IMG/VR virus record: IMGVR_UViG_2541047846_000004
DNA length: 5,629 bases
From: a virus
Lineage: Duplodnaviria > Heunggongvirae > Uroviricota > Caudoviricetes
Strand: one strand, 5' to 3'
Below are positions 1-2,929 of the stretch, in pieces. The translations under genes were made by a program, and so were the position numbers. A model generated the notes under the pieces. That model saw only the letters and a list, made by a program, of their open reading frames with translations. It searched no databases and was not told the origin of the DNA. The number at the start of each line of letters is the position of its first letter. Within the stretch, counting starts at the first letter, position 1.

Positions 1-1164
1 GGTCGTAACGTCACGAAGATGGATGCCTTTGGCTGTACCAGCCGGGGGCAGGCACACCGCGCCGGGCTGTGGCTGATTAAAACGGAGCTGCTGGAAACGC
101 AGACCGTGGACTTCAGCGTGGGTGCAGAAGGGCTTCGCCATGTACCGGGCGATGTCATTGAAATCTGTGATGATGACTATGCGGGGATCAGCATCGGCGG
201 GCGCGTGCTGGCGGTGAACAACCAGACGCGGACACTGACGCTCGACCGTGAAATCACGCTGCCATCCTCCGGCACCACGCTGATAAGCCTGGCTGACGGA
301 CAGGGGAATCCGGTCAGCGTGGAGGTCCAGTCCGTCACCGACGGCGTGAAGGTAAAAGTGAGCCGTGTTCCTGACGGCGTTGCAGAATACAGCGTGTGGG
401 GGCTGAAGTTGCCAACGTTGCGCCAGCGCCTGTTCCGCTGTGTGAGTATCCGTGAGAACGATGACGGCACGTATGCCATCACTGCCGTGCAGCATGTACC
501 GGAAAAAGAGGCCATCGTGGATAACGGGGCGCACTTTGACGGCGACCAGAGCGGCACGGTGAATGGTGTCACGCCGCCAGCGGTGCAGCACCTGACTGCC
601 GAAGTCACCGCAGACAGCGGGGAATATCAGGTGCTGGCGCGATGGGACACACCGAAGGTGGTGAAGGGCGTGAGCTTCCTGCTTCGCCTGACCGTGGCAG
701 CGGATGACGGCAGTGAGCGGCTGGTCAGCACGGCCCGGACGACGGAAACCACATACCGCTTCACGCAACTGGCGCTGGGAAACTACAGGCTGACAGTCCG
801 GGCGGTAAATGCGTGGGGGCAGCAGGGCGATCCGGCGTCGGTATCGTTCCGGATTGCCGCACCGGCAGCACCGTCGAGGATTGAGCTGACGCCGGGCTAT
901 TTTCAGATAACCGCCACGCCGCATCTTGCCGTTTATGACCCGACGGTACAGTTTGAGTTCTGGTTCTCGGAAAAGCGGATTACCGATATCAGGAAGGTTG
1001 AAACCACAGCACGCTATCTTGGCACGGCGCTGTACTGGATAGCCGCCAGTATCAATATCAAACCGGGCCATGATTATTATTTTTACATCCGCAGTGTGAA
1101 CACCGTTGGCAAATCGGCATTTGTGGAGGCTGTTGGCCAGCCGAGTGATGATGCATCCGGCTAG
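1..1164 (+). CDS. J: Tail-tip host-specificity protein J, 5'-partial fragment (central FN3-like region), ended prematurely by a TAG created at a tandem-duplication junction
   Basis: Frame 1 is open from base 1 (the ORF track starts at ATG 19, but the frame runs back to the window edge, so the true start is upstream). The translation (...[30 protein letters not shown]...[24 protein letters not shown]) matches my recollection of the central part of lambda J. The stop codon TAG 1162..1164 lies exactly on the junction of the 724-bp duplication. Confidence 0.85.
440..1163 (+). repeat. Tandem direct repeat, copy 1 (724 bp) inside gene J
   Basis: Bases 440..1163 align base-for-base with 1164..1887 at a constant offset of 724 and no indels. 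I found three mismatches by eye: 462 T vs 1186 C, 483 T vs 1207 C, 1011 A vs 1735 C. Homology stops on both sides (439 T vs 1163 A; 1164 G vs 1888 T). Confidence 0.9.
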
Positions 1165-2929
1165 TGTGAGTATCCGTGAGAACGACGACGGCACGTATGC
1201 CATCACCGCCGTGCAGCATGTACCGGAAAAAGAGGCCATCGTGGATAACGGGGCGCACTTTGACGGCGACCAGAGCGGCACGGTGAATGGTGTCACGCCG
1301 CCAGCGGTGCAGCACCTGACTGCCGAAGTCACCGCAGACAGCGGGGAATATCAGGTGCTGGCGCGATGGGACACACCGAAGGTGGTGAAGGGCGTGAGCT
1401 TCCTGCTTCGCCTGACCGTGGCAGCGGATGACGGCAGTGAGCGGCTGGTCAGCACGGCCCGGACGACGGAAACCACATACCGCTTCACGCAACTGGCGCT
1501 GGGAAACTACAGGCTGACAGTCCGGGCGGTAAATGCGTGGGGGCAGCAGGGCGATCCGGCGTCGGTATCGTTCCGGATTGCCGCACCGGCAGCACCGTCG
1601 AGGATTGAGCTGACGCCGGGCTATTTTCAGATAACCGCCACGCCGCATCTTGCCGTTTATGACCCGACGGTACAGTTTGAGTTCTGGTTCTCGGAAAAGC
1701 GGATTACCGATATCAGGAAGGTTGAAACCACAGCCCGCTATCTTGGCACGGCGCTGTACTGGATAGCCGCCAGTATCAATATCAAACCGGGCCATGATTA
1801 TTATTTTTACATCCGCAGTGTGAACACCGTTGGCAAATCGGCATTTGTGGAGGCTGTTGGCCAGCCGAGTGATGATGCATCCGGCTATCTGGATTTTTTC
1901 AAAGGCGAGATAGGGAAAAGCCATCTGGCTCAGGAGCTGTGGACGCAGATTGATAACGGTCAGCTTGCGCCTGACCTGGCTGAAATCAGGACGTCCATTA
2001 CGGATGTCAGCAATGAAATCACGCAGACCGTCAATAAGAAACTGGAAGACCAGAGTGCGGCAATTCAGCAGATACAGAAGGTTCAGGTTGATACAAATAA
2101 TAACCTGAACAGCATGTGGGCTGTGAAGCTGCAGCAGATGCAGGACGGACGCCTTTATATCGCGGGTATTGGTGCCGGTATTGAGAACACTCCTGACGGT
2201 ATGCAGAGTCAGGTGCTGCTGGCGGCGGACAGGATTGCGATGATTAATCCTGCGAATGGCAACACAAAGCCGATGTTTGTTGGGCAGGGCGATCAGATAT
2301 TCATGAACGAAGTGTTCCTGAAATATCTGACGGCTCCCACCATTACCAGCGGTGGCAATCCCCCAACGTTTTCACTGACACCTGATGGTCGACTTTCTGC
2401 GAAAAATGCGGATATCAGCGGTAACGTGAACGCGAACTCCGGGACGCTCAACAACGTCACGATTAATCAGAACTGTCGGATTCTGGGAAAACTGTCAGCT
2501 AACCAGATTGAAGGTGATATTGTCAAAACGGTGGGAAAAGCCTTTCCGAGAAATGGCAGTTATGCCAGCGGTACAATAACGGTCACTGTGTACGATGACC
2601 AGGCTTTTGACCGTCAGATAGTAGTCCCCCCCGTTCTGTTTCGTGGGGGTAAGCATGAAAACTTCAACAGCAACAACCAACAGTCATACTGGTATTCAAC
2701 CTGTAAGCTGCAGGTACTGAAGAACGGACAGGAAATCTTTCAGCAACCCGCGACGGATGTCAGCAGGGTATTTTCATCAGTCATTGATATGCCTGCCGGA
2801 CACGGCCATGTCACCCTGACTTTCAATGTTTCTTCATATGGTGCTAATAACTGGACGCCAACGACCAGTATCAGCGACCTTCTTGTTGTTGTGATGAAGA
2901 AATCTACAGCCGGTATCAGTATCAGTTGA
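1147..2929 (+). CDS. J: Host-specificity protein J, C-terminal fragment (duplicated FN3-like segment plus C-terminal receptor-binding region), frame-shifted relative to the upstream J fragment; possibly a pseudogene fragment
   Basis: The frame-2 ORF runs to TGA 2927..2929. The ORF track starts it at 1106, which is a TTG; the first in-frame ATGs are 1147 and 1150, just upstream of the frame-1 stop. The translation ([18 protein letters not shown]...NPANGN...[55 protein letters not shown]...FDRQIVV...VIDMPAG.G.V.LTF...AGISIS) matches my recollection of the lambda J C-terminus. Whether it is translated independently is unknown. Confidence 0.7.
1164..1887 (+). repeat. Tandem direct repeat, copy 2 (724 bp) inside gene J
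   Basis: Second copy of the same unit, directly abutting copy 1. It is read in the +1 frame relative to copy 1 and encodes the same 241-aa segment (VSIRENDDG...SDDASG). Confidence 0.9.

Follow-up and report, generated by a model that had tools for sequence, protein, structure and literature searches.

Gene J of a lambda-like prophage in Escherichia coli HVH 227 is, as deposited, a disrupted gene and not an intact member of its family. In the window, by which we mean the whole stretch of 5,629 bp that was analyzed, 724 bp of J stand twice, head to tail, and the join between the two copies creates a stop codon. Judging from the sequence, we consider it probable, if only just, that this is a real duplication private to the strain, which would make the locus a null allele of J.

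Anatomy of the repeat and of the broken gene

A direct comparison at a period of 724 and a repeat search placed the two copies at 440-1163 and 1164-1887 with a spacer of 0, as the first-pass annotation had described. Its description of the unit as perfect was wrong, however, because the copies agree at 721 of 724 positions (99.6%). The mismatches (copy 1/copy 2) lie at 462/1186 (T/C), 483/1207 (T/C), and 1011/1735 (A/C), all three at synonymous third codon positions (GAT/GAC, ACT/ACC, and GCA/GCC), and both copies encode the same 240 full codons. A chance origin of 724 bp at this identity is not an issue. Tandem Repeats Finder returned nothing for the window because the period exceeds the longest that it considers, 500.

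The junction, marked by the 24-mer GCATCCGGCTAGTGTGAGTATCCG, is blunt, with 0 bp of microhomology flanking the boundary. Position 1163/1164 contains no N, no k-mer is common to the two sides, and a TCCG(G)CT similarity close by is out of register by 2 bases. The unit measures 3 x 241 + 1 bases, which puts the second copy in the +1 frame, so that a ribosome meets a TAG at 1162-1164; on both points the earlier reading was right. Frame 1 is open from the start of the window to this stop, and frame 2 runs open from 1100 until it terminates at 2927-2929 (Table 1). Thus, the single uninterrupted frame of about 1,130 to 1,160 codons that defines a J gene is broken here by the stop and the change of frame. 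An ORF on the minus strand (1058-1924), antisense to J within the repeat, was taken as a chance ORF.

Table 1. Features of the window and their coordinates
Feature	Position	Strand	Description
N-terminal J frame, 3' part (frame 1)	1..1164	+	Enters from the scaffold gap
Copy 1	440..1163	+	J nt 1718-2441, codon 573 position 2 to codon 814 position 2
Copy 1 alleles	T462, T483, A1011	+	Reference alleles of the icd-prophage J
Mosaic patch	642..2188	+	28 substitutions against the J of ATCC 11775, which is otherwise identical
C-terminal J ORF (frame 2)	1151..2929	+	GenBank hypothetical protein EQV28425.1, 592 aa
TAG stop at junction	1162..1164	+	Last two bases of copy 1 (TA) plus first base of copy 2 (G); stands where intact J has Tyr814
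Copy 2	1164..1887	+	721/724 relative to copy 1
Copy 2 alleles	C1186, C1207, C1735	+	Known from paralogous J genes in other prophages
Downstream tail-fibre ORF	2982..5048	+	phage_tail_N N terminus, Laminin_G_3-like C terminus; identical to the reference prophage

The identification of the gene as J was borne out by Pfam, by phmmer matches to lambda gpJ structures, and by the locus context. The unit corresponds to residues 574-813 of lambda gpJ, that is, the hub-to-FNIII linker, FNIII-1, and nearly all of FNIII-2. Against PDB entries 8iyk and 9e7m, phmmer aligned it over residues 575-813 with an E value of about 1e-152. Pfam reported Ig_J and Ig_J_second on the unit, and the fn3 profile barely passed the 25-bit cutoff on the unit alone and was marginal on longer fragments. 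The unit protein is 97 to 98% identical to J of the lambda group and collinear with it (PDB 8IYK, 8XCI, and 9E7M; PMC11101478), and the Pfam series of an intact relative (FNIII-A_GpJ, Phage-tail_3, Ig_J, Ig_J_second, Phage_Tail_Tip, and Ig_GpJ_C) is that of lambda gpJ. Besides this collinear domain series and the high identity to gpJ, the position of the gene marks it as a lambda-type J, since it closes a lambda-like tail module and is followed by tail-fibre genes. Unlike in lambda gpJ, reading is interrupted after residue 813, and the other frame encodes residues 574-813 again.

Pfam and the alignment to lambda gpJ also confirmed that J is split into an N-terminal piece and a C-terminal ORF, each with FN3-like modules. 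If the reference start is used, the N-terminal product has 813 aa and comprises the hub domains, FNIII-1, and FNIII-2, the last ending at position 98 of the 105 in the Pfam profile; it is without the alpha-helical shaft (AHS), the central straight fibre (CSF), and the receptor-binding domain (RBD). EQV28425.1 consists of MHPAS followed by gpJ residues 574-1160 and carries Ig_J, Ig_J_second, Phage_Tail_Tip, and Ig_GpJ_C, which is the receptor-binding domain. The order and roles of these domains (FNIIIs, AHS, CSF, and RBD) are those described for lambda gpJ, in which two FNIII/Ig-like modules close the tail tip and the fibre is attached to the hub solely via the covalent chain through the linker and the FNIIIs (PMC11101478).

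Source locus, relatives, and the search for the junction

The window is part of scaffold KE701157.1 of the short-read draft of E. coli HVH 227 (GCA_000459515.1). Its position 1 is the first base after a gap of 3,305 N, so that the repeat begins only 440 bp from a contig edge. It covers the distal part of the tail module in a lambda-like prophage that sits at icd and carries iss and sitABCD, a type common in B2-type E. coli. In ATCC 11775, the module is full, in the order Z, U, V, G, T, H, M, L, K, I, J; in the source scaffold, the gap covers K and I entirely, L in part, and J up to nt 1,278, and its length expected from the reference is 2,785 bp.

At least 80% of the window is covered by about 1,020 complete E. 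coli genomes. Of the 30 matches listed, 28 span 4,905 bp, which is 5,629 minus 724, and the other 2 span about 6.2 kb and include an annotated IS3 transposase. A comparison with the J genes of related prophages, as had been proposed, showed the single-copy form in all matches examined, with J as an intact 1,160-aa CDS in a near-complete prophage. This J (WP_000515327.1) belongs to the icd-integrated, sitABCD-carrying prophage of ATCC 11775, CFT073, Nissle 1917, ABU 83972, and others. The locus and its flanks are the same as in HVH 227, whereas the relatives' J is single-copy, intact, and without the 28-site mosaic patch of the HVH 227 window. When copy 2 is removed from the window (positions then being called collapsed), there are 0 differences from ATCC 11775 outside collapsed positions 642-1464, implying that the event is recent and private.

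Within the patch, 18 sites lie inside the unit and are present in both copies, and 10 lie downstream of copy 2. Most of these substitutions match a paralogous J allele, in an allele table that leaves out the 1517k locus (L004), and wherever the two copies differ from each other, the site is one that tells paralogous J alleles apart. About 14,000 J places in complete genomes yielded no exact match to copy 1 or copy 2 (best, 97.9% and 98.3%).

A 60-bp query across the junction gave 0 contiguous matches in 5,426 complete E. coli genomes, and searches of GTDB representatives, JGI metagenomes, and IMG/VR did not find the junction either. Among about 15 billion proteins, the 592-aa product stands as a singleton. 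With a 200-bp query, thousands of matches appeared to be 100% covered, and all 30 listed proved to be two pieces about 725 bp apart, as given by a single-copy J. A repeat thus confined to one gapped short-read draft is either an error of assembly or a strain-private mutation that kills the gene.

We also looked for a J with an in-frame second module pair. In 50,697 phage records, of which 493 gave 498 places, there was no natural lambda-type J with the modules doubled in frame. A protein homologue search with the unit yielded nothing but short partial J proteins, overlooked P0001 despite its 100% identity, and cannot test for in-frame duplicates; these were sought by an exhaustive HMMER search of 1.84 billion representatives. 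The sole high-identity protein with two stretches of the J unit there, P0122, was rejected as an in-frame double J, being encoded on a scrambled draft contig (CASDMC010000056.1; L006, GCA_949281435.1), and no second FNIII-1/FNIII-2 pair in frame was present in either collection. That contig shares with the HVH 227 window two high-identity stretches of the unit, although it holds six J pieces of different alleles with both N-marked and unmarked joins, and its junctions differ from that of HVH 227. It is clearly an assembly product.

Real duplication or assembly artifact

In the reading that we favor slightly, 724 bp of J (codons 573-814) would have been doubled head to tail in HVH 227 by one illegitimate, homology-independent join. 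Translation would stop at the junction TAG and give an 813-residue J without the shaft, central fibre, and receptor-binding domain, leaving the C-terminal 587 residues stranded in an orphan ORF without a proper start signal. The prophage would then be no longer able to make adsorbing particles, and the locus would not be a working split gene. We infer that the junction is present in the DNA and that neither J fragment functions. Head-to-tail copies, the lack of a spacer, and a novel join are indeed the marks of a biological tandem duplication, and because the junction contains neither a shared k-mer nor an N, a k-mer-graph assembler should have needed reads spanning it. Short-junction, homology-independent tandem duplications in enterobacteria have reportedly been described by Roth and colleagues and, in work on illegitimate recombination, by Ikeda. 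Those are likewise head to tail with a novel join and 0-bp homology; however, they were recovered under selection for gene dosage, whereas the HVH 227 repeat is unselected and destroys its gene.

Several observations tell against a real duplication. It is known from one short-read draft only, and a fresh duplicate would not differ at paralogue-variant sites. In E. coli, duplications that do not depend on RecA usually rely on a few bases of homology, and the junction has 0 shared bases of the kind that slipped-strand or RecA-independent duplication would leave. Besides, recombination makes a tandem repeat of 724 bp and 99.6% identity unstable. We ascribe the three synonymous differences either to gene conversion between prophage J copies or to mis-phasing of paralogous reads by the assembler. 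Should the duplication be real, it would add to the ways by which a resident prophage can become noninfectious and yet leave its cargo (sitABCD and iss) in the chromosome. Under either reading, mutation or assembly error, the repeat is ordinary and its biological weight is small.

It is quite possible, though we stop short of calling it probable, that J of HVH 227 is truly single-copy and that two pieces, one ending at J nt 2441 and the other starting at J nt 1718, were abutted instead of merged over their 724-bp overlap, the mismatches then stemming from paralogous J reads. The assembly error that the first-pass annotation had listed among its alternatives has thereby become considerably more plausible, given a short-read draft, a nearby gap of 3,305 N at 440 bp, a segment that is routinely left unresolved as a collapsed repeat by short-read assemblies, and differences that correspond to paralogue alleles. 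Segment 1-1163 resembles in size and domain content the stand-alone J repeat contigs (about 0.8 to 1.3 kb) that occur in hundreds to thousands of draft assemblies. In addition, the differences between the copies are all silent and occur only at sites that separate J paralogues, the join is blunt without microhomology, and it was found nowhere else in the collections searched. The N-free head-to-tail J joins on the contig that encodes P0122 demonstrate that such artifacts do occur in J.

On the other side, 1163/1164 has no N or contig break, an assembler of the de Bruijn or unipath type should not, without reads, produce an adjacency where no k-mer is shared, and we established no concrete assembler routine that abuts overlapping pieces without a gap. 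The HVH genomes are probably Illumina/ALLPATHS-LG assemblies from the Broad Institute; a literature search on their assembly method found nothing. The window does show what is expected of a false duplication, namely, multi-copy sequence adjacent to a gap and copies that differ by variant-type SNPs. In vertebrate assemblies, false duplications cluster at gaps and variant-rich sites; these arise from diploid haplotypes, and the copies are usually separated by gaps (Ko et al. 2022; PMC9516828). Side-by-side copies near a gap with variant-type SNPs are common to those cases and to HVH 227, although here paralogous prophages would be the source of the variants and the join contains no N. If the repeat is an artifact, two GenBank "hypothetical proteins" (EQV28425.1 and its upstream neighbor) are J fragments derived from a doubtful repeat beside a gap. 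Repeats in multi-copy prophage tail genes of short-read drafts need a check of the reads before they are interpreted in evolutionary terms.

Improbable readings: split J, module gain, and tandem prophages

The remaining explanations accept a real junction and give it another meaning. It is very improbable that the two fragments work together as a split J, that a programmed +1 frameshift near the junction yields a J with four FNIII modules, or that the locus is a real module-gain intermediate in a receptor-binding protein. The ATG codons at 1148 and 1151 lie 11 to 14 nt upstream of the TAG at 1162, which makes termination-reinitiation conceivable, and the C-terminal ORF holds every domain from FNIII-1 through the receptor-binding domain. 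Nevertheless, Shine-Dalgarno spacing is poor for every candidate start, a GGAGG at 1126-1130 being 2 nt from TTG 1133 and 17 nt from ATG 1148. In the overlap of the two J frames, there is no sign of programmed frameshifting: 1098-1166 contains no slippery heptamer (X XXY YYZ) and no homopolymer of at least 4, and the final codons, TCC GGC TAG, offer no prfB-like context at GGC-TAG-T. Both programmed frameshifting and Shine-Dalgarno-driven restart were hence rejected on sequence. Moreover, the covalent chain is the only fibre-hub link in lambda (PMC11101478), and the duplicated segment has nothing known to dock two pieces.

The suggestion that both pieces are made and function as a split J gained no support, there being neither a slippery site, nor a usable Shine-Dalgarno sequence for ATG 1148 or 1151, nor a second example of such a split in the collections searched. 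The phage records hold no in-frame double-module J, and the only high-identity match in two stretches among the 1.84 billion representatives is the assembly tangle described above. The further suggestion of a snapshot of domain duplication is fair for an in-frame version of the event, but no natural lambda-type J of that form was found. If module gain were true, one compensating frameshift (-1 or +2 bases) near the junction would lengthen the tip and give J four FNIII modules.

Even less probable is a real junction formed by deletion between the J genes of two closely related tandem prophages at icd, with J nt 2441 of the first joined to J nt 1718 of the second and the differences representing parental alleles. 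Both copies carry the same 18-site patch, which, with no exact match in the J places of complete genomes, would require two almost identical parents; no tandem double lysogen occurred among the matches examined, and the end product is indistinguishable from that of a duplication. Such a deletion would nonetheless explain in one step the paralogue-type differences between the copies. It would also account for the allele pattern, in which copy 2 and the flank downstream of it read without a break as the other allele type (collapsed 462-1464) and copy 1 matches the reference at 462, 483, and 1011.

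Gene J and the 724-bp repeat

The window matches approximately 5,000 complete Escherichia coli genomes, in which the annotation beneath the match is host specificity protein J (gpJ). In strain ATCC 11775, the homologue (WP_000515327.1) is a 1,160-codon coding sequence that closes a lambda-like tail module. This module sits in a lambda-like prophage that is integrated at icd and nearly complete. The prophage contains int, xis, exo/bet/gam, a repressor, O/P-like replication genes, Q, and lysis, terminase, head, and tail genes; iss and an ompC-like porin gene are also present, and sitABCD is found beyond the tail-fiber genes. 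By sequence, domain content, and synteny, the gene in the window is an ordinary lambda-type J; its reading frame in the deposited sequence is not intact.

Comparison at a period of 724 revealed two head-to-tail copies of one unit (440-1163 and 1164-1887; repeat family D1) with zero spacer. The first-pass annotation had described a perfect tandem duplication splitting J. Its coordinates, unit length, frame logic, and stop were borne out by this comparison and by ORF reading, whereas the repeat is not perfect, the copies being identical at 721 of 724 positions. The three mismatches lie at third-codon positions in each copy's own frame and are silent (GAT/GAC, ACT/ACC, and GCA/GCC), and thus both copies encode the same 240 residues. 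Similarity between the copies ends exactly at the unit limits, not one base further. Tandem Repeats Finder, whose maximum period of 500 is shorter than the unit, reported no repeat.

Frame 1 can be read from window base 1 to a TAG (1162-1164) composed of the final two bases of copy 1 (TA) and the first base of copy 2 (G); frame 2 opens at 1100 and terminates at 2927-2929. The 3n+1 length of the unit brings translation to a stop at the junction. The predicted N-terminal product has 813 residues and stops just ahead of the shaft, and the C-terminal ORF contains J residues 574-1160.

Window base 1 corresponds to J nucleotide 1279, which places the unit at J nucleotides 1718-2441, beginning at the second position of codon 573 and finishing at the second position of codon 814. 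Against lambda gpJ (PDB 8iyk and 9e7m), the unit gives an ungapped alignment over residues 575-813. Two Pfam modules fall within this interval, the second of which is cut in copy 1 at profile position 98 of 105, and the generic fn3 model scored 27.7 bits on the unit alone (cutoff, 25) and 23.3 to 26.1 bits on longer proteins. The duplicated segment is the linker plus both FNIII modules of J.

Features of the J locus and the downstream genes (window coordinates unless J residues are stated)
Feature	Position	Description
Ig_J	J residues 610-714	Pfam, within unit interval
Ig_J_second	J residues 716-818	Pfam, within unit interval
Copy mismatches (copy 1/copy 2)	462/1186; 483/1207; 1011/1735	T/C; T/C; A/C (period-724 comparison)
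Mosaic patch, 28 sites	642-994, 1366-1718, 1892-2188	Versus ATCC 11775 J (alignment)
Tail-fiber ORF, 686/688 aa	2982-5048	phage_tail_N N terminus, long Ala/Ser/Glu-rich middle, Laminin_G_3-like C terminus
Small conserved ORF, 92 aa	5045-5323	No Pfam match; between tail fiber and sitABCD
Small conserved ORF, 97 aa	5336-5629	No Pfam match; between tail fiber and sitABCD

Occurrence of the repeat in related sequences

At least 80% of the window was covered in approximately 1,020 complete genomes. Among the 30 matches listed, 28 span 4,905 bp (5,629 minus 724), and the locus is therefore single copy in those 28 genomes. The other two (FDAARGOS_1301 and HM670) span 6,218 to 6,219 bp with an IS3-family transposase annotated beneath; in these two genomes, this part of the tail module has been disrupted independently. 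A 60-bp query centered on the join found no contiguous junction in 5,426 complete E. coli genomes, and the exact junction strings were absent from GTDB (one genome per species), JGI metagenome contigs, and IMG/VR. A 200-bp junction query gave apparent full-coverage matches; among the matches listed, all consisted of two pieces approximately 725 bp apart, i.e., single-copy J.

When the unit was compared by tblastn with 50,697 phage records, 498 places in 493 records matched, which is essentially one copy per J. Five phage records had a second unit-matching place, which could be a weak cross-match between FNIII-1 and FNIII-2 or a second J-like gene. A word-indexed protein search missed an identical protein (P0001) and was unfit for the question of in-frame duplicates. 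Among 1.84 billion representative proteins searched exhaustively with HMMER, a single high-identity protein had two unit stretches, P0122 (431 aa), the remaining multi-stretch matches being large, distant FN3-repeat proteins of approximately 30% identity. P0122 comes from L006, a 2,783-bp draft contig (CASDMC010000056.1; GCA_949281435.1) of six J pieces with different alleles, with a single N at 244, 518, and 1130, other joins without N, and exact 41- to 84-bp overlaps at the joins. The scrambled order of the pieces and the N joins mark an assembly tangle, and P0122 is spurious as an in-frame double J.

Origin of the repeat

The 592-residue product read from ATG 1151 occurs once in the protein collection, as the singleton cluster EQV28425.1 ("hypothetical protein G876_01236") of E. 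coli HVH 227 (4-2277670), on scaffold KE701157.1 of assembly GCA_000459515.1. In this draft assembly, the repeat lies 440 bp from the contig edge, where a run of 3,305 N (5546-8850 of the scaffold region L002) directly precedes window base 1 and removes the 3' part of L, the whole of K and I, and J nucleotides 1-1278. From the reference prophage, 2,785 bp would be expected here, approximately 520 bp less than the gap. In E. coli draft assemblies, the central J segment forms stand-alone contigs of approximately 0.8 to 1.3 kb; the corresponding protein clusters (P0008, P0062, P0064, P0112, and others) have hundreds to thousands of draft-genome members, the largest 3,697, and the segment is a classic unresolved repeat and systematic breakpoint of short-read assemblies.

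Collapsed to copy 1 alone, the window disagrees with ATCC 11775 at 28 sites, all at positions 642-1464 of the collapsed numbering, and at none in the other approximately 4.1 kb; if copy 2 is kept in place of copy 1, the three copy-specific differences come on top. We aligned both collapsed versions with J of ATCC 11775 and J of a lom-linked prophage (strain EC21GDE043). At the three copy-specific sites, the latter, paralogous J always has C, and it shares the majority of the 28 patch variants; hence the copy-specific bases are not new mutations but alleles circulating among J paralogues. Copy 1 carries the reference alleles at 462, 483, and 1011, and copy 2 with its downstream flank is an unbroken stretch of the other allele type (collapsed 462-1464). 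None of approximately 14,000 J places in complete genomes matched either copy exactly, the closest being 97.9% identical to copy 1 and 98.3% identical to copy 2, and the exact allele of the mosaic patch was likewise absent from complete genomes (best, 97.9 to 98.7%). Judged from its sequence, the patch looks like a tract converted from some J paralogue or like paralogous reads that were mixed, and the silent copy differences may have arisen when a paralogous J converted one copy or when reads were wrongly phased.

We lean slightly toward a real tandem duplication of the unit. There is no N and no contig break at the join, and the two junction sides have no k-mer in common, so that a graph assembler should need junction-spanning reads. 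A single homology-independent illegitimate join, between sister chromosomes or inside a replication fork, would double J nucleotides 1718-2441. No base is common to both boundaries, immediately left or right, and the join is therefore blunt. TCCGCT before copy 1 and TCCGGCT at the unit end were considered as microhomology; they are two bases out of register and do not produce the observed junction.

The unbroken, N-free join and its lack of shared k-mers speak against an assembly artifact, as does the lack of a nameable routine that abuts overlapping pieces gaplessly, although we regard such an artifact as a serious possibility falling somewhat short of probable. The repeat is known from one short-read draft only and is close to a large gap, J is a multicopy gene, the copy differences are confined to paralogue-type sites, the join is blunt, and segment 1-1163 resembles the usual stand-alone J repeat contig. 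Furthermore, L006 is a demonstrated artifact of this kind within J itself, and in other assemblies false duplications cluster at gaps and variant-rich sites (PMC9516828). As a variant route, a deletion running from one J gene to the other in a tandem pair of related prophages would give the same sequence and explain the copy differences in one step, although this route has no independent support. It is very improbable that the repeat is a true intermediate on the way to FNIII-module gain or that the two pieces work as a split J. Either way, the event is of an ordinary sort, an intragenic tandem duplication or an error of draft assembly.

Predicted expression and downstream genes

The last codons before the junction read TCC GGC TAG. 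The two-frame overlap (1098-1166) contains no slippery heptamer or homopolymer of at least 4, and programmed frameshifting is not the case here. The sole strong anti-Shine-Dalgarno match, GGAGG (1126-1130), precedes TTG 1133 by 2 nt and ATG 1148 by 17 nt. Upstream pairing at ATG 1148/1151 is weak (-2.5 kcal/mol, versus -5.9 to -11.6 kcal/mol at three downstream gene starts in the window); reinitiation past the TAG is conceivable, with nothing in its support. In lambda, the polypeptide chain is the sole attachment of the fiber to the hub (PMC11101478), and a free C-terminal fragment thus has no known way into the tip. Nothing in the analysis points to a split J or to one with added modules.

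The 813-residue product would keep the hub and FNIIIs and lack the shaft, which clamps FNIII-2, the fiber, and the LamB-type receptor-binding domain; by analogy with lambda, its tail tip would probably be unable to adsorb. If the duplication is real, the prophage would become defective and its cargo genes would stay.

Downstream of J, the identical tail-fiber sequence is annotated inconsistently in RefSeq, as a "pseudogene, missing C-terminus" in ATCC 11775 and, in other genomes, as two features under different names. The 92-aa ORF overlaps the tail-fiber stop (ATGA), and the product of the 97-aa ORF looks membrane associated from its predicted sequence.
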